From a virus (lineage: Duplodnaviria; Caudoviricetes), in IMG/VR virus record IMGVR_UViG_3300032516_005551, positions 1 through 63,122 of that record: a stretch of DNA of 63,122 nucleotides; one strand, 5' to 3'. This document shows positions 2,258 through 52,778 of the stretch, piece after piece (within the stretch, counting starts at the first letter, position 1; every line of letters starts with the position of its first letter). The notes under the pieces were generated by a model, which saw only the letters and a program-made list of their open reading frames with translations, did not search any database and was not told where the DNA came from. The position numbers and the translations under genes are program-made.

Positions 2258-2824
2258 ATGGATACTGCCTATTTCACATCTTATTTCAGTGTTTTGAAAG
2301 AAGCCGTTCGGGATGTATCATTGCTCCCCCTTGCCCAGGCCGCAAGGCTTCTTGGGAATGCAAAAAACTTTGGACAGAGGGTGTGGGTAGTAGGAAATGG
2401 GGGGAGTGCCGCAACGGCCATTCATTTTGCGAATGATCTCCAGAAAATATGTGGCATTGACGCTCTGCCTTTACCAGCTCTCATATCCACCGTAACGGCA
2501 TACGGCAATGATAACGGGTGGGACAAAATGTTTTCACTGGCGATGAAATCTTTTCGGATCGGAAACATACTGGTCGCCATCTCTTACAGTGGAACTTCTA
2601 AGAATGTTATCGAGGCAGCCAAACACGCTCTGGAGTGCGATGGAAAACTGATCGTTCTGACCGGAGAGGTATGGGAAGAGAATATCCTCGGGAACATGCC
2701 AGGAGTGATCATTTCTGTCCCAAGCGATGATATCAAGATTGTAGAGGATGTGCATCTGGCTATATGTCATTCAATCAGCGGAGCCATACATGCAATGCCA
2801 AGCATACAAAAAAAGTTGTCCTAA
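2258..2824 (+). CDS. gmhA: Sedoheptulose-7-phosphate isomerase (SIS domain)
   Basis: GNGGSAA.A.HFA.DL, TAYGNDNG, ISYSGTSKNVI and EDVHLAICH motifs. Confidence 0.85.
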   Translation: MDTAYFTSYFSVLKEAVRDVSLLPLAQAARLLGNAKNFGQRVWVVGNGGSAATAIHFANDLQKICGIDALPLPALISTVTAYGNDNGWDKMFSLAMKSFRIGNILVAISYSGTSKNVIEAAKHALECDGKLIVLTGEVWEENILGNMPGVIISVPSDDIKIVEDVHLAICHSISGAIHAMPSIQKKLS

Positions 2825-12552: not shown

Positions 12553-12554
12553 GT

Positions 12555-13418
12555 ATGAGGGTTCTTGTTCTTGGAGGAAATGGCATGATCGGACATCGGT
12601 TATGCCATGTCTTATCAAAAAGGATGGATGTGTGGGCAACCGTCAGGGAACATCCATCCTTTTATAAGAGATTCGAATTGATGTCTGGTCTCAATTTATT
12701 GGGTAATATTAATGTTCAAGATTTCGTGAAGGTCCAATATGCGATTGAAAGTTTACTTCCGGAGGTAGTGATCAATGCGGTTGGAATTGTGAAACAGAGA
12801 AGAGAGTCTAAAGAAGCAATTCCATCAATTCAGGTGAATGCACTATTTCCACACAAACTTGCGCATCTGTGTGGCGAATTGGGCATTCGTGTTATACAAA
12901 TTTCCACAGACTGTGTATTTTCAGGGCGGAACGGAAACTATTCGGAGATAGATGAACCAGATCCAATTGATTTGTATGGTCGCACAAAATTGTTGGGTGA
13001 GTTACATGCCCATGGAACATTAACGTTGCGGACATCGGTTATTGGATGGCAATTAAGTGATTCTTACGGTTTGCTGAATTGGTTATCCTTACAGCGCGGC
13101 AAGAAAATCCCCGGATATAGAAAAGCAATTTTTAGTGGACTTACTACTACCGCGTTTACGACTTTAATTAGTGATATTATTGAATTTGAATCTCAATTGC
13201 AAGGTTTATATCATGTTGCCAGTATTCCTGTTTCCAAATATGACCTGCTTATCCAGTTACAGAAAGAATTTGGCTGGGATGATATTTCCATTTCGCCAGA
13301 TGATGAATTTGTTTACGATCGCAGTTTGGATGGTTCGACCTTTACGTCAAAAACAAATTGGTCGGCTCCTTCATGGAAATCCATGATCAAGGATTTGGTA
13401 AAAGAACGGTATGTATGA
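12555..13418 (+). CDS. rmlD: dTDP-4-dehydrorhamnose reductase-like SDR
   Basis: GGNGMIG, ISTDCVFSG, YGRTK and TLRTS motifs. Confidence 0.85.
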   Translation: MRVLVLGGNGMIGHRLCHVLSKRMDVWATVREHPSFYKRFELMSGLNLLGNINVQDFVKVQYAIESLLPEVVINAVGIVKQRRESKEAIPSIQVNALFPHKLAHLCGELGIRVIQISTDCVFSGRNGNYSEIDEPDPIDLYGRTKLLGELHAHGTLTLRTSVIGWQLSDSYGLLNWLSLQRGKKIPGYRKAIFSGLTTTAFTTLISDIIEFESQLQGLYHVASIPVSKYDLLIQLQKEFGWDDISISPDDEFVYDRSLDGSTFTSKTNWSAPSWKSMIKDLVKERYV

Positions 13419-14301
13419 TCTGACCATTATTATCCCCGCGCGTAATGAGATGTTTCTAGGCAATACAATTGCCGATATACTCGCGCATATCGAAGGCAAC
13501 ACAGAAATAATCGCAGTCCTGGACGGGGAGCTGCCCACCACCCCCATTCCTGACCACCCCCGCCTCACCCTCATCCAGTACTTCACCAGCATCGGCCAGC
13601 GCGCTGCCTCCAACCAGGCTGCCAGGCTGTCCAAAGCAAAATACCTGATGAAAGTCGACGCCCACTGCGCCTTTGACCAGGGCTTCGACGTCAAAATGAT
13701 GGCGCTCATGGCAGACGATATCACCATGGTCCCGGTCATGCGCAACCTGCACGCCTTTGACTGGGTGTGCCCCGCTGGCCACCGCCGCTATCAGGGTCCT
13801 TCCGGGCCATGCACTGAGTGCAGCCAGCCTACCACCATGGATGTGGTCTGGATCCCCAAAAAGAACCCGCAGAGCACCTGCTATCGCTTCGATACCGATA
13901 TGCACTTTCAATACCATAATGAAATGGGAAAGGAACTCACCGGCGATCTCACTGAAACAATGTCCATTCAGGGATCCTGCTTCATGGCCACCCGCGAGAG
14001 ATACTTCGCCCTTGATCTGTGCTCTGAGTCGTTTCACTCATGGGGCCAGCAGGGGGTCGAGGTCGCCTGTAAGACCTGGCTCTCCGGTGGACGGGTCCTG
14101 GTCAACCGCACCACCTGGTACGCCCACATGTTCCGCACCCAGGGCGGTGACTTCGGCTTCCCCTACGAGAACCCGCAAACAGAAGTGGTGAAGAACAGAG
14201 AATTGTCCCGGGATCTTTTCGCCGGCGATAATTGGGACAAAGCCATCCATCCATTTAGCTGGCTGATCGATAAATTCAATCCGCCAGGGTGGGTGAAGTA
14301 A
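13411..14301 (+). CDS. Glycosyltransferase family 2 (paralog of 8735..9610)
   Basis: [18 protein letters not shown] and KTWLSGG motifs. Confidence 0.85.
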
Positions 14302-22862: not shown

Positions 22863-22879
22863 TCAACTCCTCTCAATCA

Positions 22880-22909
22880 ACGGAGGGTGGAAACACCCTC
22901 CGTTTTATT
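22880..22909 (+). terminator. Rho-independent terminator after the capsid gene
   Basis: ACGGAGGGTG-GAAA-CACCCTCCGT followed by TTTATT. Confidence 0.85.
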
Positions 22910-22910
22910 A

Positions 22911-22938
22911 TTGACAGTTATGGCATTGAGGGTATAAT
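22911..22938 (+). promoter_or_regulatory. Consensus sigma70 promoter for the second sugar operon
   Basis: TTGACA-N16-TATAAT. Confidence 0.8.
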
Positions 22939-23093: not shown

Positions 23094-24017
23094 ATGCTTA
23101 CTGGGCGCTTGATTCTAACTGGCGGGGCTGGCACCTTAGGGGAAGCAATAATTCGTCGCGCAACCGAAGAAAAATGGGATTGTCAGATTACAGTGTTTTC
23201 TACGGACGCGATGAAACACTTGAAACTAAAGGCGAAATATCCCAAAGTTCAATATGTTGTTGGTGATATTCGGGATGCGAATGCCTTGCTCAATGTCATG
23301 ACCGGAAAAGATTACTGCCTGCACCTGGCAGCAGTCAAACATATTGACGTGAGTGAATACAACTCGATTGATACCTATGAGATCAATGTAGGTGGTTCTC
23401 TCAATGTTTGTGCAGTTGCCATGCAATTGGGTGTACCGCATGTTCTGGGGATTTCCACCGATAAAGCGGTTCATCCTGCCAATTGCTATGGTGCCACTAA
23501 GATGCTTATGGAACGCGTCTTTCAAGAATATGCGCGCTTGGACATTCCAACTCAATATCATTTAGTGAGATATGGAAATGTGATCGAGAGTAGTGGATCG
23601 GTTGTTCAGGCATGGAAAAAATCGATCGCCCGTGGAGAAAATATAAAAATAACAGATCCGCAAATGTCAAGGTTTTGGCTTAATCCAAGTCGGGCCGTGG
23701 ACTGTGTTCTAAAGGCTCTTGAGTGTCCTTCTGGATGCGTCTATATTCCGCGAATGCCATCGCTTTCAATTGGAAAATTAATGCAATATACAGTCGGAGA
23801 CGTTTTATTTGAGCGTGTTCCAATTAGGCCAGGAGAGAAAATGAACGAGTCTCTTCTTTCCGAAGAAGAAGGCTGGTACGCACTCCAAAGTCCGGATGCG
23901 TTTCTGCTGGCACCCAACACCGCTGGGCGTTTTGAAACGGCGGTTTTGCCATATACAAGTGATACTGCCAGGGAACTTACGCGAGATGAACTGGAAGTAT
24001 TGCTGGAGGAGGGATGA
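23094..24017 (+). CDS. NDP-sugar 4,6-dehydratase (PseB/FlaA1/CapD family)
   Basis: TGGAGTLG, AAVKHI, STDKA, YGATK, RYGNV, MSRF and RPGEK motifs. Confidence 0.9.
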   Translation: MLTGRLILTGGAGTLGEAIIRRATEEKWDCQITVFSTDAMKHLKLKAKYPKVQYVVGDIRDANALLNVMTGKDYCLHLAAVKHIDVSEYNSIDTYEINVGGSLNVCAVAMQLGVPHVLGISTDKAVHPANCYGATKMLMERVFQEYARLDIPTQYHLVRYGNVIESSGSVVQAWKKSIARGENIKITDPQMSRFWLNPSRAVDCVLKALECPSGCVYIPRMPSLSIGKLMQYTVGDVLFERVPIRPGEKMNESLLSEEEGWYALQSPDAFLLAPNTAGRFETAVLPYTSDTARELTRDELEVLLEEG

Positions 24018-24499
24018 CAGAAGACTATCTGCAACTCTTGATCGAAAATCAACGCATATTGGGGCAATTCGATGCGTCCAAAGTCAGTGGGCTTACCCCT
24101 CAGTGGTTCTGGGATCGCTGGATAGACCTGATAGACTTCAGGGGAAGTCTTAAAATCCGTACAACTAATCTTGTTCTCGGAAGAAAGGTTTGTATCATTA
24201 CCGCTTCGCACATCATATCCTCCGGAGCGGCCGGTGATTGGTCAATAAAGCGTGTCTGGATCGATGACAATGTATATATTGGCTCGCGTGCATTATTATA
24301 TAATTGTCACATTATGAACAACGCGGTGGTAGCTTGCGGTGCAGTAGTGAGAAATATGATTGTTTCTGCATTTACAATTGTTGAAGGAAATCCAGCCAGG
24401 TTATGTGGTAAATTTGAGAACGGAATGTGGAGAAGAATAGAGAGCAGCCACGTGGCCCGTGAGTATCTGAATGGTTTGCAGGAGTGGGAAGAAGGATGA
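24014..24499 (+). CDS. Hexapeptide-repeat (LbH) acyltransferase
   Basis: VWIDDNVYIG and AVVACGAVV..IVEGNPAR motifs. Confidence 0.8.
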   Translation: MTEDYLQLLIENQRILGQFDASKVSGLTPQWFWDRWIDLIDFRGSLKIRTTNLVLGRKVCIITASHIISSGAAGDWSIKRVWIDDNVYIGSRALLYNCHIMNNAVVACGAVVRNMIVSAFTIVEGNPARLCGKFENGMWRRIESSHVAREYLNGLQEWEEG

Positions 24500-25230
24500 C
24501 AGACAATTGGGAATTGATGCTGGACTGCAAGGGCATGGGAGGAAATGCCGTTGTTCCAGCTCCTCCACTTTGCATTATTTTGATCACATACCTTAGAACA
24601 GAGATGGCTGTCAGAACGATCAAAGGGATCGCAGATAAGCTGGATTATCCCAAAGAATTACTTTCATGGTATATTGCCGACGATGGATCTCCCAGCAAAC
24701 ACATGGCCGAGATATTCAAAACCATTTCTGACTCCGGAATGAAACTGGCGGGATATCATAATCAAAAACTTCAACCGGGTTTCTTGTGCGGGGTCGGATG
24801 GAATCTTGCCATAAGAAAAGCACATCAGATATCAGACTATATCATGCTTCTGGAAGATGATTGGGTATTGAAGAATACGATGGACATCAGACCATATATG
24901 TGGATGTTGAAGGAAACACCCACTGTTGGCATCGCAAGATTAAGCGGGTTAACCACTGATAATATTGTAAAAGTCATGGTTCATCGCGGAACCCATTATC
25001 TTCAATATCTTCGCCAGGCTCCATTTTGCTATTCCGGAAACCCTCATATCCGGCATCTCAGATTTACCGAATATTATGGGTTTTTTGATACTGACAAATC
25101 ACCCGGGGATATAGAGGTATACTATGATGGCAAGTTCAGGTGGATGAAAGGTGGACCAGAAATCTGGAGGCCAGCCGAGTTATCTGCCTGGGGACCTTTC
25201 GATCATATTGGACAGACGAGGACATGGTAA
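24496..25230 (+). CDS. Glycosyltransferase family 2
   Basis: LITYLR, ADDGS and LEDDW motifs. Confidence 0.8.
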   Translation: MTDNWELMLDCKGMGGNAVVPAPPLCIILITYLRTEMAVRTIKGIADKLDYPKELLSWYIADDGSPSKHMAEIFKTISDSGMKLAGYHNQKLQPGFLCGVGWNLAIRKAHQISDYIMLLEDDWVLKNTMDIRPYMWMLKETPTVGIARLSGLTTDNIVKVMVHRGTHYLQYLRQAPFCYSGNPHIRHLRFTEYYGFFDTDKSPGDIEVYYDGKFRWMKGGPEIWRPAELSAWGPFDHIGQTRTW

Positions 25231-25847
25231 TGACAGATGAGGAAAATTTCAACGATCCCAGAACTTACGATGGCAGAGATCCAGCTATATGGATGGATGG
25301 TCTAAAAGAAATGGATCTTCATAATATAAAACACCTTTTGATCACTTTTGCATATTTTGGCATCCCGGAATCCATGTTGGATATTGGATGCGGGACAGGC
25401 ATCATAGTCAAAACCGCTATGAAACTGGGGGTGAGATCGTATGGGTTGGATCAACTTGTGGACGAGAATGACAAAACAAACTGGCCGGATGGTTTTGTTC
25501 ACATGAACTTGGTTGATTTCTGGAAAGCTCCCGAACCAGTTGATATCGTATTCTGCATAGAGACAGCCGAGCATATTCACGAAACAGCACATGGAACACT
25601 ATGCAGGACGCTGTGCGAAAATCTAAAGGAAGGACCAAATCACCACATCATCTTTTCTGCTGCTCGTCCGGGGCAGGTGGGGGCAGGACACGTCGCCAAT
25701 CGTCCAGCGGAATACTGGCATAACGAAATGATCGCGCACAATGTTGGTTTTGATAAAATTGCCACAATGAATCTTGGACTCCTTTATTCAAACACCCAGA
25801 GCGCGCTTAATTATTTTTGGGATAATCTGATCGTGTTCAGTCGATGA
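25224..25847 (+). CDS. Class I SAM-dependent methyltransferase
   Basis: LDIGCGTG, ETAEHI and FSAARPGQ.GAGHV motifs. Confidence 0.85.
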   Translation: MVMTDEENFNDPRTYDGRDPAIWMDGLKEMDLHNIKHLLITFAYFGIPESMLDIGCGTGIIVKTAMKLGVRSYGLDQLVDENDKTNWPDGFVHMNLVDFWKAPEPVDIVFCIETAEHIHETAHGTLCRTLCENLKEGPNHHIIFSAARPGQVGAGHVANRPAEYWHNEMIAHNVGFDKIATMNLGLLYSNTQSALNYFWDNLIVFSR

Positions 25848-26824
25848 TAATTACACGTACTCCCCTGAGGATCTCTTTTTGCGGTGGTGGAACGGATATG
25901 CCCAGTTTCTATCAGAGACATGGTGGCGCGGTGGTCAGCCTATCCATAGACCAATATCTATATGTCTCAGTTAATAAAAAGTTCGATGGGAGGATAAGAC
26001 TTTCTTATTCACGCACAGAAAATGTAGACCATCCTTCCGAACTGAAACACGATCTGGCCAGGGCTTGCCTGGAATTGTTTAACCTAAAAGGAGTAGAGAT
26101 AACATCTGTTTCAGACATCCCGGGCGAAGGAAGTGGACTTGGATCCTCCAGTTCTTTTACAGTAGGATTACTGAAAGCTATATCTTACTATTGCGAAAAG
26201 CCTTATAGTTCTCCATACATCCTGGCGGAAACCGCCTACATGGTTGAACTGAGCGTTGGACATCCCATTGGAAAACAGGATGCCTTTGCTGCCGCTTACG
26301 GAGGGTTGCATTTCTTTAAGTTCAATAAGGATGATCATGTGGAAGTGGAACCAATATGTTTTCAGAATGGGGAAGAGAATGAATTTCAAAACCAACTTAT
26401 GTTATTATGGACTGGAAAGACCAGAAAATCATCCAGTATATTAAAGCAACAGAGCAAGAATATTTCAAAGAACGGAATGTCTGAAAACGCGGCTCTTGAT
26501 ATGCGTGATCTTGCCTATAAACTTCGCGAAAATCTACTGCTGGGCGGAATATTTACGCTGGGAGAATGTCTGCATAATAACTGGGAATTAAAGAAGGAAT
26601 TGGTGGAAGGAATATCTAACAACAATATTGATGATTTGTATGCAAGTGCCAGGGGTCTGGGAGCGAGTGGAGGAAAAATATGTGGAGCAGGTGGTGGAGG
26701 TTTTCTGCTTTTATGTGCACCAATTGGAAAACAACCCGACATAGAATTTTCTCTTGGATTACGTAGGATACCATTCAGAATATCAAAAAAAGGGAGCACT
26801 ATTATCTATGGCAACGACAACTAG
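25844..26824 (+). CDS. hddA: D-glycero-alpha-D-manno-heptose-7-phosphate kinase (GHMP family)
   Basis: TPLRISFCGGGTD, GSGLGSSS, GKQD and KICGAGGGGF motifs. Confidence 0.85.
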   Translation: MIITRTPLRISFCGGGTDMPSFYQRHGGAVVSLSIDQYLYVSVNKKFDGRIRLSYSRTENVDHPSELKHDLARACLELFNLKGVEITSVSDIPGEGSGLGSSSSFTVGLLKAISYYCEKPYSSPYILAETAYMVELSVGHPIGKQDAFAAAYGGLHFFKFNKDDHVEVEPICFQNGEENEFQNQLMLLWTGKTRKSSSILKQQSKNISKNGMSENAALDMRDLAYKLRENLLLGGIFTLGECLHNNWELKKELVEGISNNNIDDLYASARGLGASGGKICGAGGGGFLLLCAPIGKQPDIEFSLGLRRIPFRISKKGSTIIYGNDN

Positions 26825-27188
26825 AAAACCGAAGGTTCTTTTCATGGACGACAGAAGTAAACGAATTCATTCTGCAATCGGGAAGTTTAAGAACTGTGAT
26901 CTAACCATAGTTACCAACGTCATCGAGTGTCTTCAATTTCTTTCGAACGAAGAATGGGATGTGGTTTTCTTGGACCATGATCTGGGTGGTCGGGAATTTA
27001 TGGATCCATCAAGTCCTTTTAGCGGGATGGAAGTGCTTAGGTATATTTCAAGAACTAGTTGGCCCATAGAAAAAAAGAAACCCAATTTTGTCATTCACTC
27101 CTCTAATACATTCGCTGCCATGGCAATGGAGGAGTATCTCAAAGAAATGAAATTCTCTGTGGTGAGAAGGAGATGGGAATATGGTTAA
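26808..27188 (+). CDS. Stand-alone receiver-like domain (cyclic-phosphate-processing REC type)
   Basis: LFMDD, FLDHDLG and IHSSN motifs. Confidence 0.65.
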   Translation: MATTTRKPKVLFMDDRSKRIHSAIGKFKNCDLTIVTNVIECLQFLSNEEWDVVFLDHDLGGREFMDPSSPFSGMEVLRYISRTSWPIEKKKPNFVIHSSNTFAAMAMEEYLKEMKFSVVRRRWEYG

Positions 27189-27585
27189 GGTTGGGCTGGT
27201 AACTGGTGCATTTGATATCATCCATCCAGGGTATATCCGTTTATTCAAGGATGCCAAGCGGGTGTGTGATTACCTTATTGTTGCTCTCCAGGATGATCCA
27301 TCGTTGGAAAGACCGAAGACAAAATACAAACCGATCTTCTCCAAGGAAGAAAGGTTTGAGATCCTCATGTCCATTCGTTATGTGGATGAAGTGCGATTCT
27401 ACAACACAGAAGATGATTTGATGCTTCTTCTTTTGGAGATCAAACCCGATTCAAGGATCATGGGTACGGATCATTCTGGAAAAGTAGTAACTGGAAGGAA
27501 TGCGGCTCCGATCTATTATCATATCAGAAATCATAACTGGTCGGAAACAAGAGTCAGGAAATTATTATGCGAGGAGAGAAAATGA
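27181..27585 (+). CDS. Cytidylyl/adenylyltransferase (TagD/RfaE-like, HIGH family)
   Basis: GAFDIIHPGY (HxGH variant), ER..IL..IRYVDEV and MGTD motifs. Confidence 0.85.
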   Translation: MVKVGLVTGAFDIIHPGYIRLFKDAKRVCDYLIVALQDDPSLERPKTKYKPIFSKEERFEILMSIRYVDEVRFYNTEDDLMLLLLEIKPDSRIMGTDHSGKVVTGRNAAPIYYHIRNHNWSETRVRKLLCEERK

Positions 27586-28493
27586 AGGTTCTATGCACTG
27601 GCGCAGCAGGATTTGTATGCAGTCATGTTGTTGATCTGCTTCTGAAAGGTGGTCATGAAGTATTGTGCATTGACGATCTATCTTCTGGACTTAGAAGCAA
27701 TCTCCCAAGGAAAGTTAATTTTGTAGAGATAAATGTTGCAAACTGGTATGATATCGTTTCTGAATTTGTGGATTTCAAACCAGAGGTAGTCATCCACATG
27801 GCTGCCCAGCCATCCATCTTCGAATCATTTGACAATCCAATTCGGGACGGTTATGTGAACGTAATGGGAACTCTGAACGTGATCCGGGCGGCTCAGAAAA
27901 TAGGGGCAGAAAGGCTAGTATTCTCTTCCACTTCTGCTGTATACATGGAACTCTACTCGGACCTTCCTACTACCGAAGAATGGCCGTGTCATCCAAATAC
28001 ACCTTATGGTATTTCAAAATTAGCGGCGGAGTCCTATGTAAGACTTCTGATGCCGGAGGGCGGAACCGTGTTGCGTTTTGGGAATGTCTATGGTGAGAGA
28101 CAGGTTCCACTTGGAGAAAACCAGGTTGTACCAAGAATGATACGGCATTTTGAGAAAGGCGATGATTTTTTCATTCATGGTGAAGGCACCCAACAACGAG
28201 ACCTGGTATACGTCGGCGACGTAGCGCGTGCTGTTGTTTTTGCAATGACTGGTCCTGTTGGTATTTATAATATCGCTTCTGGAAAAGCGGTGTCAATTAA
28301 TAAACTGGCCACTATGATTGAAGAGATTTATCAAGTACCTGGCTACAACTGGCAGTATGACGACAAGATCGATCCCAGAGTAAAGGCTGAATTGGATATT
28401 CGAAAGGCTATTCATGATTTGAATTGGCATCCCGGTATTGATCTTCAAGCTGGTTTATGCAAGACTGTTGAATGGTGGAAGGCACAGAAATGA
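27582..28493 (+). CDS. NAD-dependent epimerase/dehydratase (GalE-like)
   Basis: TGAAGFV, SSTSAVY, YGISK and RFGNVYG motifs. Confidence 0.9.
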   Translation: MKVLCTGAAGFVCSHVVDLLLKGGHEVLCIDDLSSGLRSNLPRKVNFVEINVANWYDIVSEFVDFKPEVVIHMAAQPSIFESFDNPIRDGYVNVMGTLNVIRAAQKIGAERLVFSSTSAVYMELYSDLPTTEEWPCHPNTPYGISKLAAESYVRLLMPEGGTVLRFGNVYGERQVPLGENQVVPRMIRHFEKGDDFFIHGEGTQQRDLVYVGDVARAVVFAMTGPVGIYNIASGKAVSINKLATMIEEIYQVPGYNWQYDDKIDPRVKAELDIRKAIHDLNWHPGIDLQAGLCKTVEWWKAQK

Positions 28494-31303
28494 CACTCCG
28501 GGTCTTCATCTCTCCCAACTATCTTAATGAGAAGGAACACGTCGACCGTGGGGGCATTAAACAGGTTGTTCTCGCCGAGAATAAATATCTTGGTCAATTT
28601 GATGTTGAGTCGGTTGCCAACATTGAAGAAGCTCACGTGATCCAAAATCAGGGTTCGATGCAGACCTGGCGCAAGGGCGTTCCTGTAGTGAACTCCAGTC
28701 ATGGATTGTACTGGTCCCGCTATCCCTGGGGAGAGGGAACTCAGGAAGTCAACCGAGAACTTATGCAGGCAATGTCGATGGCAGTCGCACAGACCGCTCC
28801 TTCCGAGTGGGTAGCGAGATCCATTCGGCGTGGTGCTTTGATCTATCCAGAGGTGGTTTATCATGGAGTAGACGCGGATGAATTTCAACCCAGTCTTCAT
28901 CCGAGTGATTACGTTCTATACAATAAACTCCGACATGATTTTGTCAGTGATAGTAAACAAATGCAGGAAGTCGCAAAATTGCTTCCGAACGTACAGTTCC
29001 TTTCCACAATAGGGATCGCGACCCCAAACGTGAAAGTTGTCGGCGCGATGCCGTATGACCAGATGAAACTTCTGACTTCGGAGGCTGGAGTTTATCTCGC
29101 TACCACACGGGAGACTTTTGGGATAGGAACTCTTGAGGCCATGGCTTGCGGTGTGCCAGTTGCCGGATTTTCTTGGGGTGGAACCAAAGAGATAATAATA
29201 CAGGGAGAAACAGGGTACCTTGCTCCTCCCGGAAGATTCGACTTACTTGCAGATTGCATTAAACGCTGCATCGACGAACGCAAGCGACTGTCAGTGAATT
29301 GTGTGAACGATGTGCGCTTCCGCTGGAAATGGGAGAGCAGGATCCAGCAGTATGCCGATCTTTTCAAGGCTGTGTATTCAGACTGGTATGAAGATAGACC
29401 AAAAGTTTCCATCATTGTTACCGCTTACAATCTTGATCGGTATCTTCCCCAGTGCCTTGATTCTGTCAAGATTCAAACGATGAAAGATTGGGAATGCCTG
29501 GTAATAGATGATGCACAATTAACATCCACCCGGGAGATCGTGAACGATTATGCCAAAAAAGACAAGCGTTTCAAATACATCGCCACTCCTGAAAACCTCG
29601 GGTTATCCGGCGCAAGAAACTTTGGCTTTTCGAAAGCGAAAGGCCATTACATTCGTCATTTGGATGCTGATGATTGGCTTGGAGAAACTGCGCTCGAGGT
29701 AGAGTCTGGTGCTCTGGACGATGACCCATTTATTCACATTGCTTATGGTGCTCTTTGCATGGTTGAACAAGATGGTGTAATACCCATGGTACAAGGTTCT
29801 CCCAAACGGTGTGATTGGCCGAAGCCGAAATTCTCATGGATAGAGCAAATGGCGCACCTGAACCAGATCCCAAGTTGCGTAATGATGCGCAGGGAAGTTC
29901 TTCAAAGGTCTGGCGGGTACCGCGTTCGTAACAAACGCCAGGAGGATGCTGAATTCTGGTGCAGGGTGACTTCGCTTGGGTTCAGGGCCATGAAAGTAAC
30001 CGAGGCCATCACCTACTTCCACAGGCAAAGGAACGACAGCAAGGGGCAGATTGAGTGGGATGTGGATGGAAAAGAACCAGATTGGACCGCCTGGTTTCCG
30101 TGGAGTCTGGGCGCAAGAGATTATCGAGAAGGAACTGAATTACTTCGGAAATTTCATGGAGAACACCCTAACGCAGCCATCGTGCCATTCGGAGCACAGG
30201 GCATTTCCTCGGAAGGAAAGTTCTGGTATATCAATGATTTTTCTTACCCGCTGGTCAGCGTGATCATTACCTGTGGCCCGGGGCATAAAGAATATTTGAT
30301 CGATGCTTTGGATTCTGTGCAGGCCCAGACATATCCTGATTGGGAGTGCATCGTGGTCAACGATACTGGCGTGAAATGGGGTAGTTACATCCCGGGCGCA
30401 CCATGGGCAAAGGTTGTTAACATGGATGGCAACCAAGGTACAGCGGCAGCACGAAATGAAGGTTTCCAGCACAGCAATTCACGCTACATAATCTGGATGG
30501 ATGCTGATGATTATTGGTTGCCATGGTTCTTGGAGCGCATGGTAGCTTATGCGGAGCAGAACTTTGGGATCATCTATTCGGACATCATCATGGATGACGG
30601 GAAAGAGAAGAAGGTCTACAAGTATGGCGATTTGAAGTACGATGAAGTGCCATTCCACATGCAGTATGCCGGTTCATCCATCCTTATCCCATGGGAGATC
30701 GTCCACGCGGTCAATAACTTCAACGGCGGGTACGATATAGAAGCACCTGGGATGGAGGACTGGATTTGGCAGATCGCCTGCCATCATCTCGGCTTCTGTG
30801 CCTTCCATCTGCCTGAACCCCTCTTTGTATATAGGACGTTCACATCCACCAAAAGAGAGCGCGACTATGCTAAAATAGAGGATATCCGGGCGTACCTGGA
30901 TGTCAAGTGGAAAGATTATCGTAAAGAAGGGAAAAGACTCATGTGTAGTTGTACTGGGACGAGGAAAGTAACCAATAAACCAAACAGTATGATGACCGCC
31001 TCTGGTGATTTCGCCAAGAGTCTGAATCTTCCCGAAAACGCCAATGAGACCCAGATGGTATTGGTGGAGTATATGGGACCCATCGCCGAAACCTTCTCAA
31101 TTCGCTCACGTATTGATCGAGGTATAAATTATCGTTTTGGAAACAATCCTTTGCACAAGGAACGAACCACCTTCCTTGCAGATGCTCAAATATTGACTGC
31201 CATGGAGGGTGGAGATGGGAAACCTCTTTATCGCGTGAAGGGGATATCCGGACTGACAGAGAATCGAGATCCGACTAATATTGTTGGGGCTATCGTTCAA
31301 TGA
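28490..31303 (+). CDS. Triple glycosyltransferase fusion (GT4 + GT2 + GT2) with C-terminal extension
   Basis: ETFGIGTLEAMACGVP (GT4); VSIIVTAYN..LDADD (GT2); VSVIITCG..MDADD (GT2). Confidence 0.85.
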   Translation: MTLRVFISPNYLNEKEHVDRGGIKQVVLAENKYLGQFDVESVANIEEAHVIQNQGSMQTWRKGVPVVNSSHGLYWSRYPWGEGTQEVNRELMQAMSMAVAQTAPSEWVARSIRRGALIYPEVVYHGVDADEFQPSLHPSDYVLYNKLRHDFVSDSKQMQEVAKLLPNVQFLSTIGIATPNVKVVGAMPYDQMKLLTSEAGVYLATTRETFGIGTLEAMACGVPVAGFSWGGTKEIIIQGETGYLAPPGRFDLLADCIKRCIDERKRLSVNCVNDVRFRWKWESRIQQYADLFKAVYSDWYEDRPKVSIIVTAYNLDRYLPQCLDSVKIQTMKDWECLVIDDAQLTSTREIVNDYAKKDKRFKYIATPENLGLSGARNFGFSKAKGHYIRHLDADDWLGETALEVESGALDDDPFIHIAYGALCMVEQDGVIPMVQGSPKRCDWPKPKFSWIEQMAHLNQIPSCVMMRREVLQRSGGYRVRNKRQEDAEFWCRVTSLGFRAMKVTEAITYFHRQRNDSKGQIEWDVDGKEPDWTAWFPWSLGARDYREGTELLRKFHGEHPNAAIVPFGAQGISSEGKFWYINDFSYPLVSVIITCGPGHKEYLIDALDSVQAQTYPDWECIVVNDTGVKWGSYIPGAPWAKVVNMDGNQGTAAARNEGFQHSNSRYIIWMDADDYWLPWFLERMVAYAEQNFGIIYSDIIMDDGKEKKVYKYGDLKYDEVPFHMQYAGSSILIPWEIVHAVNNFNGGYDIEAPGMEDWIWQIACHHLGFCAFHLPEPLFVYRTFTSTKRERDYAKIEDIRAYLDVKWKDYRKEGKRLMCSCTGTRKVTNKPNSMMTASGDFAKSLNLPENANETQMVLVEYMGPIAETFSIRSRIDRGINYRFGNNPLHKERTTFLADAQILTAMEGGDGKPLYRVKGISGLTENRDPTNIVGAIVQ

Positions 31304-31614
31304 CTCTCCTGGAATTCGCAATTCTGGGATTGGCTACCTGGCGTATATCTGCCCTGCTGTCAAAGGAAGCAGGGCCATTCGACGTTTTCAAACGGATAAG
31401 AGAGAAGGCGGGAATAACTCACGACGAGAATGATGACGTGTTCATGGTTCCCCACAATTTCTTCGCCGAATTACTGTCATGCGTCTGGTGTACTTCCATC
31501 TGGGTGGCGGCGTTCTGGGCGTGTTTCTTTGCAGTAACTCAGCAAATTTGCACAATTATTGCTACGATTTTCGCTTTGAGTGCGGTTGCTATTTTTGTGG
31601 ATCGTCTTTCTTAA
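31300..31614 (+). CDS. DUF1360-like membrane protein
   Basis: LATWRI..LL..EAGPF..IR..ELLSCVWCTSIW pattern. Confidence 0.7.
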   Translation: MTLLEFAILGLATWRISALLSKEAGPFDVFKRIREKAGITHDENDDVFMVPHNFFAELLSCVWCTSIWVAAFWACFFAVTQQICTIIATIFALSAVAIFVDRLS

Positions 31615-32665
31615 CCATTCCTCTCTGATCACAAACCACACTTATCACATATTTGACATCGGCACTGTTCATATTTTGATGGCAGGGAACATATAGATGG
31701 GTGTGGGAGATATGTTCCGCTACCGGGAACTTTCCAACACTTTGATAGCGCGGTTCTTCCAATGGGATGCAGGAGAAGAATTTTCTGCATTCAATCCCCG
31801 CCTGAAGTATATTTCTCATTGCGCCATCCCTGGCACTCTCTGATGAAAACTCAACCGGATACCCATGAGGAACAATTTCTTCTCTTTCCCGCTCATAAAA
31901 TCCACCCAATCCTTTCTGCATTGCAAGAAAGTTCTTTCTCCTTCTTGAAACATACTCATCAACATGATTCATCAGACAGATGCCAAGAACGGATTGAAGA
32001 CTGGTGAATCTGGCGTTGAACCCATAGTTTGTAAAATGGAATTTATTCATTGGATCTGTCGTGGTAGAACCATGTGCCCGGATGGACCGGCATAGACTGG
32101 CGAGCTCGGGATCATCAGTAACAATCGCTCCCCCCTCACCGGTCGATATTGTATGGGACGGGAAGAATGAATAAGTACCCATTTTCCCAAATGTACCCGC
32201 AGACTTACCACCCAATCTACTACCGAATGCTTCACATGCGTCCTCAATATCCGGATTTGTTGGTCCCTGCCGTCCCATCAAATCAGTTGAAAACACGATA
32301 GAATGAAGATAAGTGTACGGATGAATATAAGAAAGATCGACCGTCCAATCTTCTTTTACGTCTACAAAGACTACCTGTAGTCCGTTATACAATACCGAAT
32401 TCGGTTGGGCAATGAAAGTTAGGGCTGGGACTACCACACTTCTTGAGATCTTATAAACTGCCTTCATGGCTGCCACGGCAACGGCATCCGCCATGGTCCC
32501 ATTGGAAACAGCTATGCAGAATTTTGAGCCAACATAATTTGCGATCGCTTCCTCGAACTGCTCGATAAGATCAGTTTGTCCTATCTTTCCTGCCCTGAGA
32601 GCATTTTCCATCATGGGATAGGTTTCTTCCGGAATGTTTACTGCCGCCAGAGATACTTTATACAT
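31589..32665 (-). CDS. DegT/DnrJ-family PLP enzyme, His-type (ColD/RfbH-like 3-dehydratase)
   Basis: VSNGT, VPALTF, EDACEA and SFFPSHTISTGEGG, with His at the position of the usual catalytic Lys. Confidence 0.8.
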   Translation of the reverse strand: MYKVSLAAVNIPEETYPMMENALRAGKIGQTDLIEQFEEAIANYVGSKFCIAVSNGTMADAVAVAAMKAVYKISRSVVVPALTFIAQPNSVLYNGLQVVFVDVKEDWTVDLSYIHPYTYLHSIVFSTDLMGRQGPTNPDIEDACEAFGSRLGGKSAGTFGKMGTYSFFPSHTISTGEGGAIVTDDPELASLCRSIRAHGSTTTDPMNKFHFTNYGFNARFTSLQSVLGICLMNHVDEYVSRRRKNFLAMQKGLGGFYEREREEIVPHGYPVEFSSESARDGAMRNILQAGIECRKFFSCIPLEEPRYQSVGKFPVAEHISHTHLYVPCHQNMNSADVKYVISVVCDQRGMVKKDDPQK

Positions 32666-32666
32666 T

Positions 32667-33398
32667 TCACCACCTGCTGCCAGCGGTCGAAAGATAATTA
32701 TCTGTTCTCCAAACTCCCATGTGCCAGATGGGTTCTTTCTGTTCAAGAGAATCCTCTCCAAAACGCATGGGGATTGCGATCGTCGGTCCATCATGTTTAT
32801 AATAACGCTCATTACCAAGAAGTTCTGCGTTGCCGGGTTGATTCGGGGCACAAGACGGTATATCACCGTAAGCATCCCAGAAGCGCCTGTGATACAAATG
32901 GAAACCGATTGTACTCATGTAGGCGGTTGAACTTTTACTTTTATCCAGTCTCCACCAATGCAATCCGCCGCAATCCAACAGGTCTGCATGAACGTCAACC
33001 TCGTCTTTCTGGTTTGGTCCATTTGACCAGAAGGCAAGCCTGGCCATCCTCACGCATCCGATTTCCGGGTGTTTCAAAAGCAATGCCACGTCGGGAGTTA
33101 TGTCAATTTTGTGCTGGGGCATAAAGTCATCCAGGGCGACTACCCATACATCTCCGCCATGCCTGGCGCATGAGTTTACCATATCGGATAGGTTATCTGT
33201 GACTTCGACCGATGTTGGATAATCCTTGGTGAGCCTGAGATAATAATCTATGTCCTCCTGTGGACTGCCGCCATCTGCAATATGAAATTTTATTGGAGCA
33301 CCATACCCAACAAGTCCAATGATCATTTGAATGGTCATCACGGCATACCATGGACGTTTGTATGTGCAAATCCCGAACGTGAGCGGGGGGAGATCCAT
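32667..33398 (-). CDS. Glycosyltransferase family 2
   Basis: ICTYKR, IADGGS and ALDDF motifs. Confidence 0.7.
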   Translation of the reverse strand: MDLPPLTFGICTYKRPWYAVMTIQMIIGLVGYGAPIKFHIADGGSPQEDIDYYLRLTKDYPTSVEVTDNLSDMVNSCARHGGDVWVVALDDFMPQHKIDITPDVALLLKHPEIGCVRMARLAFWSNGPNQKDEVDVHADLLDCGGLHWWRLDKSKSSTAYMSTIGFHLYHRRFWDAYGDIPSCAPNQPGNAELLGNERYYKHDGPTIAIPMRFGEDSLEQKEPIWHMGVWRTDNYLSTAGSRW

Positions 33399-33991
33399 TA
33401 TTTCACTTCCTTTTTGAATATAACCAGGTCCTTAAATTGGGTCATTTTATAGTTGTATCCAGTGGATAAGTGGATTTCAACGAATGTTTTTATTTTTTCC
33501 CATGCGGCTGATTTTTCGTAGAATAGAATTTCCCCTGCCACAGAAAGTTTCTTTGTCATTGTGTTTAACACACCTTCAACAGCATTGCCTGGGTAATCTG
33601 GGTTTAGTACCTGTTCAGAAATTTCCCCGAGGTGGAATAAAGAAATGAAATCAAACCTAGGTAAAATATTTGCGTTAATCAGATGAATATCCCCGAAGTC
33701 AACCATGTATTTTCTGGCCAACCATGGATTTTCCGTGGCGAGATTTATGTATTCTTTTACCTCAGACGGAGTTATGGAAATGGAACGCACGAAAATGTTG
33801 CTCTGTTCCACCGCCCATAGACCGACCTTGTGATGAAGACCAGGCCCCATGTGAAAGATGACAGCCGTGTTCATTTTTTCAAGACCCAACCCAGAAAGAT
33901 ATTCAATAAATTGTGTGTCACACGGACACACATCACTGTATTCCCATCCCACTTCAACGATTGGAATATTTGTCATGTTTCTTTTCTCCAC
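33398..33991 (-). CDS. Hypothetical protein, SAM-methyltransferase-like fold
   Basis: IFHMGPG, GDIH and FDFISLFH resemble degenerate Rossmann methyltransferase motifs. Confidence 0.45.
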   Translation of the reverse strand: MEKRNMTNIPIVEVGWEYSDVCPCDTQFIEYLSGLGLEKMNTAVIFHMGPGLHHKVGLWAVEQSNIFVRSISITPSEVKEYINLATENPWLARKYMVDFGDIHLINANILPRFDFISLFHLGEISEQVLNPDYPGNAVEGVLNTMTKKLSVAGEILFYEKSAAWEKIKTFVEIHLSTGYNYKMTQFKDLVIFKKEVK

Positions 33992-34641
33992 AAAGATACC
34001 CCTTTATTCTTTGCCCAATATTCTTTTATCTTCTGAGCAGTTATTTCAGGAGTTGGATATAAATCCTGGGAAACATATTTTCGCATAGCATCAATCCAAT
34101 GCGATAGCCCTTCCGAAGTTATATCCGCTGTAGTTCCAGTTAATCCAAGCACAGCCGGATCCAGGGCATCCGGAAGATATTCCACATAGGGAAAATCTAC
34201 GAAATATGTCAGTGATATTCCCAGATCCTCGCTGGCCTTTCGAATAATAACATGATCCACATGGCTTCCAACGGCCAGAGGGCACATCAGGATATCGTCA
34301 GATTCCAGTTGCATTTTTAATAGATGTGTTATTGCCAGAGCTGTTCTGTCTTCCGGGTGAACCGTGGAAAAAACCGTTGAGTAAAGTTTATTCCCCTCAA
34401 AATCCTTTCTATCGAGACCATCGAGGAAACAGTAGTGAATCGGTTTCGCTCCCAATATCTTCAGTGCTTCTTTATCCTCTTTCATTCGTATGGTGTATTT
34501 CTCACTGGATGTTTCTCTGGGAATTGCACACATGAAAGTGAAAACCTCAACATCCATTCCCGCATTCACCTGATCGTATATTAATCCTCCACAGGATAAG
34601 ACTGCATCATCCAGGTGGGGGGAAAGGTAAATAGTCTTCAT
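33973..34641 (-). CDS. PIG-L/LmbE family deacetylase
   Basis: SPHLDDAVLSCGG, R.KED, HVDH and YVSQ motifs. Confidence 0.9.
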   Translation of the reverse strand: MKTIYLSPHLDDAVLSCGGLIYDQVNAGMDVEVFTFMCAIPRETSSEKYTIRMKEDKEALKILGAKPIHYCFLDGLDRKDFEGNKLYSTVFSTVHPEDRTALAITHLLKMQLESDDILMCPLAVGSHVDHVIIRKASEDLGISLTYFVDFPYVEYLPDALDPAVLGLTGTTADITSEGLSHWIDAMRKYVSQDLYPTPEITAQKIKEYWAKNKGVSLWRKET

Positions 34642-38809: not shown

Positions 38810-40996
38810 ATGCCTATTCCTGCCGCAATTGTAACCCTGATGTTCGTTGTTGAAGGCGTACTTGATTTTACCAAGGACGTTAATACAGTCCATGGATCGC
38901 TGGATAAACTTAGAGCTTCGCTTTCGGACAACATCTTTACAGATGCGGTCAAAGGGATAACCAATTCCTTTTCTGAATTTGGGGATAAACTGTGGGATAT
39001 TGCCTCTGTCGCCATCGGGGTATTGTTAAGGGACGCATTTAACTGGTTGTTGGAAACTCTAAAAGAAATCATAGCATCTGCTTTTGAGGCAGGTGCAGCA
39101 TTTCAATTGGTTGAAATGCGTTTGAAGGGATTGAATTTACAGGCTGCCATTGATTCCGGGTTAAGTTATGCCGATGCCATGAAAGCATCCATAGATGTAA
39201 CAAAAGAACAACTTGACTGGATCATGAAGTTGGCTGCAATTACCCCATATGATGCAGAGGATATTGCCAAAACCTTCACCATGGCAACTGCATTTGGATT
39301 CAATGCTACTGCTGCAAAAGAACTCACGGAAAGTATCCTTGACTTTACCGCTGCAATGGGGTTGGGAAGCCAGGAGCAACAACGAATTATCGTTAACTTT
39401 GGACAGATGATCCAGAGAGGAAAGATCACCACCCGGGAAATGAACGATCTGGCCAGGGGTTCGTTGCTTCCTCTGGCGGATGTATTGAAGCGCGTTGTAG
39501 AGAATTCAAAGGGAGCGTTTGCGAGTGTCGCAGATTTAACCGCAGCGATCTCGAAACCCGGCGGAGGAGTTGATCCACAATTATTCATAGATGCCTTCAA
39601 TGAAATGGTGAACAGCGAAGAGAGATTTTCTGGCGCGGCTGTTCGAATGGCTCATACGTTCGCTGGTTCCACGGAAAACATAAGACAATCTTTGAGAGAT
39701 GTGATTGGTTTCTTTATCCTTCTACCAGGGTTTCTGGATCCAGTTGGTCAGAGACTTGGCGATATCATGGATGAAGTGGGGAACAGATGGGGGGAAATAA
39801 TTGATGCTGCCGGACGGGTGGGTGCCGCGCTCGCCCCTATCATCAACGGAATTTTGGACTTATTTTTGCCAGGCGCCGGAACCATAGTAGACAGTGTGGT
39901 CGGCGGTTTGGATTCTATCGCTAATTGGTTGACAGATAATAAAGAAAACATTCTTGGATTCTTTCGCAGGGTTTCTGACTTCCTGTTTGGAACAGAAGCA
40001 GATGAGAGCGGTAATTTCGGAACAGTAGGAGCACTTCAGAGCATAAAGAATTGGATTGATGCAAACGGTCCACAGGTACTCGGATTCTTTACCGGGATAG
40101 GAACCACGATCCAAAAAAAGATCGTCGCGTTATGGGAAGAAAAATTAAAACCGGCATACGATGATCTTTCGAACTGGGTGACTGAAAATAAAGGGCCAAT
40201 TAATGAATTCTTCAGTGCTCTTGGAGATATCGTCTCGGATGTAATCAATGGGCTTCTGGGTATCAAAAGTGGTCATAGTCCAGCGACCATTCATGGCGTA
40301 TTGGACAAGATATTAGAGGTTATGAAATGGGTCACGGATAATAAAGAAAGCATCGCCAGTTTTGTTGAATCATGGGTAAGATTCTGGATTTTTGCCGAGT
40401 TGATAAAATTCCTCTTAAGCGAGATTCTGGGGTTTGTCGGAGCATTACTCGCTCTTGATGTAGGTGCATGGGGACTTCTCTGGTTAGGTATTAAAATGAC
40501 TTTTGGAATAATAAAGGAAACTGTTGCATTTATTTGGGAAACTATAAGCAAAATAATGGGGGCTAAAATGGGACCGTATTTTGGTGTTCCTATTCCGACC
40601 TGGGGACTACCAACTGTTCCTCCAGTGGTTACTCCTCCTCCGGCCACTCCTCCCGTAGTTAATCCTCCCGTAGTTAATCCTCCCGGGGTTAATCCTCCCG
40701 GGGTTACTCCAATGACTCCAATGACTCCTTTTGTTCCTCCAACAATTGTCCCTCAAGTTGCAATGGCAGAGGGACCTGGTATCCTGGACAACCTGAAAAC
40801 AATTGCTGATTATTTTACTGGAGATGAATTTCAACTAAGTATTTCGGTACCACAGAACGTCTCTGGTAATACAGTATCATCAGTAACATCTTCTACAACT
40901 AATGCAACCAGCAACTATAATTTGACTATCAACACCATGGCATCAAAAGAAAACATAATCCAGGATTATGCCTCGTTGAAGGCAATTGCTGTGTAA
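38810..40996 (+). CDS. Tape measure protein
   Basis: LAAITPY, FGQM..RGKIT.REMNDL tape-measure domain, Trp-spaced helical repeats, and a Pro-rich C-terminus. Confidence 0.85.
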   Translation: MPIPAAIVTLMFVVEGVLDFTKDVNTVHGSLDKLRASLSDNIFTDAVKGITNSFSEFGDKLWDIASVAIGVLLRDAFNWLLETLKEIIASAFEAGAAFQLVEMRLKGLNLQAAIDSGLSYADAMKASIDVTKEQLDWIMKLAAITPYDAEDIAKTFTMATAFGFNATAAKELTESILDFTAAMGLGSQEQQRIIVNFGQMIQRGKITTREMNDLARGSLLPLADVLKRVVENSKGAFASVADLTAAISKPGGGVDPQLFIDAFNEMVNSEERFSGAAVRMAHTFAGSTENIRQSLRDVIGFFILLPGFLDPVGQRLGDIMDEVGNRWGEIIDAAGRVGAALAPIINGILDLFLPGAGTIVDSVVGGLDSIANWLTDNKENILGFFRRVSDFLFGTEADESGNFGTVGALQSIKNWIDANGPQVLGFFTGIGTTIQKKIVALWEEKLKPAYDDLSNWVTENKGPINEFFSALGDIVSDVINGLLGIKSGHSPATIHGVLDKILEVMKWVTDNKESIASFVESWVRFWIFAELIKFLLSEILGFVGALLALDVGAWGLLWLGIKMTFGIIKETVAFIWETISKIMGAKMGPYFGVPIPTWGLPTVPPVVTPPPATPPVVNPPVVNPPGVNPPGVTPMTPMTPFVPPTIVPQVAMAEGPGILDNLKTIADYFTGDEFQLSISVPQNVSGNTVSSVTSSTTNATSNYNLTINTMASKENIIQDYASLKAIAV

Positions 40997-49553: not shown

Positions 49554-49679
49554 TCATATCTCACCTTTCACTAGTATACTGCCTGCCTCAGCCGCCTGCC
49601 ACAGCGCGGCGAGATCAACGTCATCCGGGAGGATGATGTAACATAACGTGCCCTGGTCATAGAGGGGGAGGATCTTCAT
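49554..49679 (-). CDS. 41-aa microprotein, copy B (MKILPLYDQG...)
   Basis: Paralog of 48559..48681; ATGA overlap with the methyltransferase stop codon. Confidence 0.6.
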   Translation of the reverse strand: MKILPLYDQGTLCYIILPDDVDLAALWQAAEAGSILVKGEI

Positions 49680-50701: not shown

Positions 50702-50750
50702 TGTGAATCTCCATAGGGAAGCGACGGTGTGTACTCCTCGCGATGGGGGA

Positions 50751-52616: not shown

Positions 52617-52778
52617 TCATTTGAACGCCTCGAAGAGCATCCAGGTAATTGCGGCGCAGGATGCCAAGATACCCCATATTGCCAGGCCGCAGACGCAACC
52701 GTCCACGATCCCGCGGGCGGCGGCGAGTTGATAGCCGTAATCAAACGGTTCGTTATCAAAATCAAGTTGATCGTTCAT
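52617..52778 (-). CDS. Small membrane protein
   Basis: MNDQLDF... with a C-terminal hydrophobic helix; ATGA-coupled. Confidence 0.45.
   Translation of the reverse strand: MNDQLDFDNEPFDYGYQLAAARGIVDGCVCGLAIWGILASCAAITWMLFEAFK

Follow-up and report, generated by a model that had tools for sequence, protein, structure and literature searches.

The complete genome of a temperate siphovirus-type phage (IMG/VR record IMGVR_UViG_3300032516_005551; the window analysed here, 63,122 bases, is the entire virus record, bears direct terminal repeats and is estimated to be 100% complete) encodes a small stand-alone protein of the receiver-like cREC family, whose gene lies between those of a sugar kinase and a putative sugar-phosphate nucleotidyltransferase. 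Judging from this context, we tentatively read the protein as a non-orthologous heptose-1,7-bisphosphate phosphatase that does the job of GmhB in a phage nucleotide-heptose pathway, an assignment for and against which the evidence is nearly balanced. It is carried by the order and overlap of the genes, by the residues conserved in the cREC lineage, by the failure to find a GmhB of the HAD family in the phage, and by proviruses that have a HAD phosphatase in its stead.

The cREC protein and its proposed pathway partners

A sequence-only reading of this stretch had noted that the genes for the kinase, a receiver-like protein and the nucleotidyltransferase overlap in series. The coordinates bear this out: the kinase and cREC genes share 17 nt and the cREC and transferase genes 8 nt, and the transferase gene in turn overlaps a gene for a short-chain dehydrogenase/reductase (SDR) by 19 nt (Table 1). 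Translation of cREC most likely begins at ATG 26808, with a GGGAG Shine-Dalgarno sequence 11 nt on its 5' side, and less likely at the alternative TTG 26754, because homologues start at the same point as the ATG; the transferase ATG 27181 has AGGAG about 9 nt upstream. Since the gene order matches the order of the chemical steps, the slot between kinase and transferase supports a phosphatase step.

The stand-alone receiver-like identity given in the sequence-only reading was confirmed by profile and structure searches, and the motifs it had quoted were found in the protein as VLFMDD, FLDHDLGG and VIHSSN. The protein matched Pfam cREC_REC (PF20274) with an E-value of 1.5e-15 and 58 bits against a cut-off of 27. 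This was the sole family reported; there was no match to Pfam Response_reg at E <= 0.01 and none to any NCBIfam model. An AlphaFold2 model (predicted local distance difference test, pLDDT, 94.8) has a five-stranded alpha/beta fold in which the last helix is missing and an 18-residue loop follows strand 3. The best structural match by VIA-align was a receiver domain (Z 13.1, root-mean-square deviation 2.1 Å over 101 residues), and among the 50 matches listed all but one were titled receiver domain or response regulator, with Z of 10.9-13.1. Foldseek matches to receiver folds reached E of about 2e-5, and the phospho-acceptor aspartate of the cREC aligns with that of receivers.

The cREC_REC family goes back to a comparative-genomic study of jumbo phages, in which it was traced to receivers and predicted to be a cyclic-phosphate phosphoesterase; in the accessible text of the two papers that describe it (PMC7824862; PMC9503650) it appears solely with NAD/ADP-ribose and RNA-repair genes and never with histidine kinases. 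The window protein is a member of this described family in a setting from which cREC has not been reported before: unlike those published, its neighbours are glycosyltransferases, an SDR, a GHMP kinase and a cytidylyltransferase-like protein. Neither a histidine kinase (HisKA, HATPase) nor an output domain was found among the 67 open reading frames (ORFs) scanned of the complete phage.

Seven residues (D14, D15, R19, D56, D58, H97 and N100) are invariant in 32 cREC sequences, and in 110 distant members D14, D15, D56 and D58 are at least 96% conserved, save for a D/E alternation at position 14. Family-wide, the invariant or nearly invariant positions are D14/D15 after strand 1, R19, D51, the run L-D56-H57-D58-L after strand 3, G73, and H97-S98-x-N100 after strand 4; no invariant lysine was seen in the C-terminal third of the alignment, where receivers carry theirs after strand 5. 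The lineage found in sugar islands departs from the other cRECs at three positions that flank conserved residues in sequence, next to the active site as predicted: Arg stands at position 16 in 95% (D/S/N elsewhere in the family), Lys at position 18 in 92% (E/N/Q) and Ser at position 99 in 97% (L/W/M). It also has an inserted WPxEK loop ahead of strand 4. The two added basic residues, R16 and K18, would fit a substrate with a second phosphate, and the aspartate two residues past the putative nucleophile may be the counterpart of the general acid/base of HAD enzymes.

The kinase has GHMP_kinases_N and GHMP_kinases_C domains, with a conserved GHMP motif (PGEGSGLGSSS). Its closest solved structures are 3k85 (1.4e-40), WcbL (4usm and 4usk, 2e-40 and 5e-39) and 4n3o (1.8e-35), the last a putative heptose-7-phosphate kinase, and by sequence its place in the HddA/WcbL group is clear. 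The score against the HddA model NF049969 (5.6e-44, 151 bits) is far below the equivalog cut-off of 600, and the exact specificity of the kinase is therefore a proposal, namely that of a D-glycero-D-manno-heptose-7-phosphate 1-kinase. The transferase belongs to the superfamily of PF01467 (1.7e-12, 48 bits against a cut-off of 21), and it matched TIGR02199 rfaE_dom_II (5.6e-23, 81 bits, under the cut-off of 181.5), TIGR01518 (TagD; 2.2e-16, below cut-off) and phrog_7878 (1.4e-30); we propose it as a candidate heptose-1-phosphate nucleotidyltransferase. In its motifs HPGY replaces the HxGH of the superfamily, and WSET/WSVT replaces the SST-type C-terminal motif. The HPGY variant is kept across the lineage (window; L002, L091, L092, L104, L108, L110, L111 and L118) and recurs in the unrelated viral locus L196; because of its conservation in the lineage the variant is probably functional. 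The SDR matched GalE, dTDP-glucose dehydratase and heptose epimerase models, all below their cut-offs.

An isomerase gene, which the sequence-only reading had placed elsewhere in the genome, lies 23 kb upstream of the triad, where it adjoins the terminase genes. Its GmhA-like product matched PF13580 (E 3.6e-16 in the ORF scan, 8e-18 in the six-frame search), and its top NCBIfam matches were all phosphoheptose isomerases (8e-23 to 1e-19), below the curated or equivalog cut-offs. A HAD-family GmhB, reported missing in the same reading, was likewise not found: six-frame searches of the complete virus record with TIGR00213, PF13242 and PF00702 gave no match at E <= 1, and the Pfam scan of the 67 ORFs showed no HAD domain. 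We also asked whether the 276-aa ORF that follows the GmhA-like gene (2748-3578) might be a phosphatase in disguise; it matched no Pfam or NCBIfam family and had no similarity to the ORF in front of the large terminase gene of G047, a related provirus.

In the pathway that we propose, the GmhA-like isomerase of the phage would convert sedoheptulose-7-phosphate to heptose-7-phosphate, the HddA/WcbL-like kinase would add the 1-phosphate, and cREC would take off the 7-phosphate via a phospho-aspartate intermediate on D56. D14/D15 would form the acidic (metal) site, D58 would serve as general acid/base in the manner of the Asp+2 of HAD enzymes, and R16, K18 and R19 would hold the second phosphate. 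The HldC-like transferase, or a host enzyme where it is absent, would then make the nucleoside diphosphate (NDP)-heptose for the SDR and glycosyltransferases of the island. The data show how the genes are ordered and overlap, the family and fold to which the proteins belong, and their conservation and phyletic patterns; the substrate, the mechanism of catalysis and the nucleotide used are what we infer.

Table 1. Features of the window named in the text
Feature	Position	Strand	Remarks
HddA/WcbL-type GHMP kinase	25844..26824	+	TAG stop 26822-26824
Stand-alone cREC (receiver-fold) protein, 126 aa	26808..27188	+	TAA stop 27186-27188
HldC/TagD-like nucleotidyltransferase, cytidylyltransferase fold, 134 aa	27181..27585	+	
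NDP-sugar epimerase/dehydratase (SDR)	27567..28493	+	PF01370, E 2.4e-56
GmhA-like sedoheptulose-7-phosphate isomerase (SIS_2)	2258..2824	+	PF13580
Glycan-biosynthesis island	23094..34641	.	holds the kinase/cREC/transferase triad; Pfam and NCBIfam scans
Terminator-like hairpin, then sigma-70 promoter	22879-22904, 22911-22938	+	consensus scan; predicted
Large terminase	3478-6009		
Tape-measure protein	38810-40996		
Integrase	58908-59879	minus	
Imm5-like putative immunity protein; 261-aa pentapeptide-repeat protein	52775-53341, 54159-54944	minus	early/lysogeny region

Gene order in the lineage and the distribution of cREC and HAD phosphatases

Relatives of the cREC protein were collected from several sources. 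A collection of 5.8 billion proteins held only 32 relatives of near length, all with PF20274. When contigs from viruses, genomes and metagenomes were scanned, tblastn re-found cREC at 161 loci, 148 of them non-redundant; tblastn of the protein against 50,697 deposited phage genomes returned nothing at E <= 1e-3. In a quick IQ-TREE run, the 37 non-redundant loci at least 42.5% identical to the window cREC formed one clade (SH-aLRT 97), and those of sufficient length share the capsid-position protein of the window at 58-86% identity (an atlas look-up gives major-capsid clusters for this protein, as a lead only). Species-representative genomes yielded one cREC match (L089/G085), on a 15-kb contig that also carries a GmhA-like gene. 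This contig is probably the phage itself, and the Anaerolineae metagenome-assembled genome that holds it is a weak hint at the host. Among 401 genomes of the same phylum a strong cREC match occurred only in that contig, and G085, whose genome completeness was not established, gave no GmhB-like match.

The kinase gene lies directly upstream of cREC in 18 of the 23 lineage loci with at least 1 kb of upstream sequence and within 3.5 kb of it in three further ones (L005, L006 and L011); the two genes overlap in L092, L096, L108 and L090, the last being the window's own sequence. The commonest order is kinase-cREC-SDR without a transferase. The order of the window, kinase-cREC-transferase-SDR, is shared by L002, L091, L092 and L108, the transferase precedes the kinase (transferase-kinase-cREC-SDR) in L103, L118 and L172, and a large glycosyltransferase follows the kinase-cREC pair in L097 and L098. 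Directly downstream of cREC, 26 loci with at least 700 bp have an SDR (16 loci), the transferase (6), a large glycosyltransferase (2) or another gene (2); the SDR follows the transferase in those 6, and of all genes downstream of cREC it is the one that recurs most constantly in the lineage. In a sub-lineage (L112, L116, L109 and L106; P0025 and P0027) cREC is extended at its C-terminus by about 80 residues, which include two CxxC pairs and resemble a zinc ribbon, and here cREC stands between GT2 and GT10-like genes with no adjacent kinase.

Eight whole genomes of the lineage carry cREC (G000-G005, G008 and G011; 96-100% complete). An SIS_2 gene, the kinase and cREC occur together in all eight, and a Hydrolase_like HAD in none. 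Two proviruses give the complementary picture. G047, which is 53% identical to the window in the capsid-position protein, 48% in a 577-aa protein encoded after the terminase region (6987-8720) and 39% in the kinase, is without cREC and has a 146-aa HAD-IIIA phosphatase immediately 3' of its GmhA-like gene (TIGR01662 1.4e-15, above cut-off; weak GmhB match, 1.6e-6). In L178, with the order NTP_transferase-kinase-GmhB-SDR-GmhA, in which the first two genes are HddC and HddA, the GmhB (NF006506, 8.5e-48) fills the kinase-to-SDR slot that cREC holds in 16 lineage loci. G060, a more distant relative that is 59% complete, has GmhA and the kinase and neither phosphatase.

We further took a census around the kinase, which has thousands of relatives; a scan of viral contigs confirmed 429 kinase loci, of which the best 80 were kept. 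Hidden Markov models (HMMs) built from clusters of neighbouring genes were applied within 4 kb of the kinase. They found a GmhA-like SIS protein in 52 of the 80 loci, a small cytidylyltransferase-like protein in 29, a transaldolase in 21 and an NTP_transferase in 6; a GmhB-like HAD, whose neighbour cluster matches GmhB models, was present in 20 and cREC in 3, with both in none. A fourth cREC, in L177, is cut by the contig end. For viral GmhB-like HADs TIGR00213 was less sensitive than PF13242 or the viral-cluster HMM (8 of 50 records as against 10 of the same 50 with PF13242), and the final HAD counts use PF13242 (Hydrolase_like). Counted over the 80 whole records, cREC alone occurred in 4, a Hydrolase_like HAD alone in 24 and both in none.

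A widespread viral cassette was also seen, running transferase-GmhA-GmhB-like HAD-transaldolase-...-HddA-like kinase beside T4-type RNase H and PhoH genes (L203, L205, L209, L211, L217, L219, L221-L223, L230-L232, L234, L237, L238, L242, L243, L246 and L247, some of them partly lost at contig ends). The accessible text of a commentary on Tang et al. (Science 2024) calls the heptose-pathway phosphatase 'absent in viruses' (PMC11461863). Contrary to that statement, some viral heptose cassettes encode what by homology is a GmhB-like HAD.

Weight of the assignment and alternative explanations

Several of our own results weigh against a heptose-bisphosphate phosphatase. Neither phosphatase was found in 52 of the 80 viral kinase records, nor in 5 of the 9 that are at least 90% complete (cREC in 3, HAD in 1); as most viral heptose cassettes are without a phosphatase, a phage-encoded one is not strictly required. 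The sequence-only reading had proposed to test whether this receiver family and gmhB exclude each other near hddA. The two were indeed never together, and the exclusivity has the predicted sign but little weight, since 4 cREC and 24 HAD records among 80 give zero overlap by chance with a probability of about 0.23 and the four cREC records are one lineage. All kinase-linked cRECs belong to one phage lineage and amount to one recruitment event. A cytidylyltransferase-like gene is present in three of the eight lineage genomes (G000, G005 and G008) and missing from five, among them G004, where a weak match contains a stop codon; alternative nucleotidyltransferases (PF00483, PF12804) were found in none of the five lineage genomes searched for each. 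The transferase being often missing, the conserved core of the lineage is isomerase, kinase and cREC, and the last step would often come from the host. No kinase was seen in the 2.7-2.9 kb available 5' of cREC in L112 and L116, where a cREC with a Cys-rich C-terminal tail sits among glycosyltransferases, and no GHMP kinase within about 6 kb in 111 more distant cREC loci. Finally, the accessible text of PMC9503650 describes the cREC family as experimentally uncharacterised. What stands of the non-orthologous phosphatase put forward in the sequence-only reading is the anatomy of the locus, the logic of the missing step and the prediction made for the family; its substrate comes from context.

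The wider family places the sugar context in perspective. A Pfam run on 206 ORFs flanking 110 of the 111 distant loci reproduced the published contexts, that is, R2K ATP-grasp with SNase, Ro60/TROVE, Macro, NADAR, HAD_SAK_2, NUDIX and NAD synthase, along with eight Metallophos proteins and cytidylyltransferase-like proteins in L022 and L043. The sugar context is thus a specialised offshoot of the cREC family and not its norm. A search for longer proteins returned four cREC fusions. P0155 joins cREC to a GT9-like domain (PF01075, 24.5 bits against a cut-off of 22) and Methyltransf_24; its middle domain resembles viral clusters automatically named ADP-heptose:LPS (lipopolysaccharide) heptosyltransferase, a lead only (atlas score 0.92), for which sequence support from the PDB is negligible. 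In P0153 the partner is a Wzy_C O-antigen-ligase domain; the cREC of this fusion shares 57% identity with the cRECs of L161 (643-3333) and L168, two cellular-looking loci of the order dapB-cREC-SDR-SDR in which the SDRs are of the NDP-sugar type. The remaining two are cREC with NAD synthase (P0156) and cREC with AAA and Roadblock domains (P0154). In P0153 and L161/L168 a glycan-linked cREC occurs without a kinase; this suggests a wider range of substrates, or another substrate, and also counts against the specific assignment. The fusions link cREC with the making of glycans more than once and, as they have no kinase, support a glycan-related phosphoesterase more firmly than the heptose-bisphosphate reaction in particular. 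This glycan-associated side of the family (P0153, P0155, L161 and L168) is not mentioned in the accessible text of the family papers.

The main rival follows from these observations: cREC may be a phosphoesterase of the glycan island with another substrate. Candidates would be some other sugar phosphate, a cyclic sugar phosphate, or an intermediate that is a phospho-glycan or a lipid-linked pyrophosphate. The steadiest neighbour of cREC is the SDR and not the kinase (SDR directly downstream in 16 of 26 loci), L112 and L116 keep cREC among glycosyltransferases with no kinase nearby, P0153 and L161/L168 link it to glycans kinase-free, and the family name itself predicts cyclic-phosphate hydrolysis. 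We nevertheless regard this explanation as unlikely. From its domain content, no other predicted sugar-pathway step obviously needs a phosphatase; a route like that to diNAcBac (N,N'-diacetylbacillosamine), with dehydratase, aminotransferase and acetyltransferase, uses none; and the tight overlaps of kinase, cREC and transferase, together with the HAD-bearing G047, suit the heptose step better. The same overlaps could speak for a different role, as translational coupling often marks stoichiometric partners: cREC might be a phospho-acceptor or ligand-sensing regulator of the kinase or transferase, charged by a small phosphodonor without a histidine kinase. The response-regulator receiver fold of nearly all structural matches listed, the aligned aspartate and the fusion to non-catalytic modules in P0154 would agree with such a regulator, but the 67 ORFs hold no histidine kinase or output domain, Response_reg does not match, and the strict conservation of DxD and HSxN and the HAD-complementary relative favour catalysis, so that we consider regulation quite improbable.

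Still less probable is that cREC is merely located in the island and keeps its published role in conflicts between phage and host, where it would process cyclic ADP-ribose phosphate or the 2',3'-cyclic phosphate ends of RNA. Such a role would accord with the flanks of the distant cRECs and with the homing endonuclease and DNA methylase insertions for which the island is a hot spot in relatives. However, RNA ligase, sirtuin, Macro, NADAR and Nudix were not seen in the 67 scanned window ORFs, the place among overlapping sugar genes holds across the lineage down to 43% identity, and the substitutions beside the active site are lineage-specific. Least credible of all, in our view, is a phosphoheptose mutase that would shuttle the phosphate between O7 and O1 via the bisphosphate, a cofactor that the kinase would provide. 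The idea draws on the analogy to beta-phosphoglucomutase, a HAD enzyme that uses phospho-Asp chemistry and a bisphosphate intermediate, and it would explain why cREC persists where the kinase is not adjacent; the joint presence of kinase, GmhA and cREC in 8 of 8 genomes is, by contrast, what a stoichiometric kinase step would give.

We therefore retain the heptose-1,7-bisphosphate phosphatase as our working assignment. The broader claim, that a receiver-fold cREC is a genuine metabolic phosphatase replacing GmhB and the first member of a wider glycan-associated cREC branch with GT9-like and Wzy_C fusions, is one we put forward with rather more doubt than belief. Full-text literature searches found no paper placing a receiver-like or cREC protein in the heptose pathway, and the words heptose and GHMP are absent from the jumbo-phage paper that defines cREC. 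If true, the assignment would give a first biochemical function to cREC, a phage-rich family so far predicted from context, and would make this the first receiver fold known to turn over a phosphate monoester of a small molecule, a signalling switch become a metabolic phosphatase that converges on HAD chemistry. It would also extend cREC from NAD and RNA-repair conflict systems to glycan synthesis, and fill the phosphatase step that the commentary, in its accessible text, calls absent in viruses (PMC11461863).

The phage genome and comparison with known systems

Besides the genes in Table 1, the phage carries a Dit-like tail protein and an endolysin. Its sugar-metabolism genes form two blocks among the structural genes (8735-14301 and 23094-34641) and take up about 27% of the genome, some 17 kb, which makes the phage a good subject for studies of phage-directed glycosylation independently of the enzyme question. 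The second block, the glycan-biosynthesis island, contains a PseB-like dehydratase, an LbH acetyltransferase, glycosyltransferases, a methyltransferase, a DUF1360 protein, a DegT aminotransferase and a PIG-L deacetylase. Over both blocks, and besides the PseB-like, LbH and PIG-L proteins, we counted at least six glycosyltransferase-like ORFs, three methyltransferases, a DegT/PseC-like aminotransferase and an RmlD-like reductase. One ORF (28472-31303) encodes a 943-aa triple glycosyltransferase with one GT1-type and two GT2-type domains, which is 44-72% identical in the lineage and more distant relatives.

The candidate promoter just 5' of the island fits the sigma-70 consensus at 12 of 12 positions (TTGACA-16-TATAAT), suggesting that the island may have its own expression, possibly from the prophage, besides late-gene expression. 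The predicted hairpin, a strong one, lies directly 3' of the capsid-position gene, and hairpin and promoter together have a moron-like layout. In relatives the glycan island is a hot spot for selfish insertions: homing endonucleases (HNH/AP2, Endonuclease VII and His-Me finger) and N6/N4 DNA methylases occur at varying points (L002:693-3515; L005:7460-8095; L009:3821-4135 and 7298-8512; L011:3937-4605). The stretch around the Imm5-like and pentapeptide-repeat genes is high in GC (57% versus about 46% elsewhere). Phage gene clusters able to place heptose on 5-hydroxymethylcytosine are described in the accessible text of a preprint (bioRxiv 10.1101/2023.12.21.572611). A DNA-hypermodification role of the sugar genes was considered here; no dioxygenase family was found among the scanned ORFs, and a C5 cytosine methylase is present (49676-50857).

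Compared with cREC_REC as a family (PF20274), the window protein scores above the gathering threshold, has the same D-D, D-x-D and H-S-x-N signatures, is likewise stand-alone and phage-borne, and has no histidine kinase partner. It differs from the published NAD/ADP-ribose and RNA-repair contexts by its place in a nucleotide-sugar operon and by the gain of R16, K18, S99 and the loop insertion. With CheY-like receivers it shares a (beta-alpha)5-type fold, an acidic pair after strand 1 and an aspartate after strand 3, whereas the Response_reg match, the last helix, the conserved lysine after strand 5, a kinase partner and an output domain are all lacking, and the 18-residue loop after strand 3 is its own.

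Viral NDP-heptose cassettes, some with GmhB and transaldolase, are built from the same families as the phage pathway, with identities to the window of 28-44% for the isomerase, 35-52% for the kinase and 30-46% for the transferase. Those cassettes have a GmhB-like HAD (20 of 80 within 4 kb) or nothing at the phosphatase step, and among heptose pathways of this kind cREC occurs only in the lineage of the window. To GmhB itself, an enzyme of the HAD-IIIA type, the cREC protein has no sequence or family relationship (TIGR00213, PF13242 and PF00702 are without a match) and no cap domain; its putative nucleophile stands on strand 3 of a receiver fold, whereas the DxDxT of GmhB stands on strand 1 of the HAD fold. 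What the two would have in common is the proposed reaction and pathway position and an aspartate-based phosphoryl transfer, and in two proviruses a phosphatase of this type takes a matching place, with GmhB in the corresponding slot of L178 and a HAD-IIIA phosphatase in place of cREC in G047, a relative of the phage.

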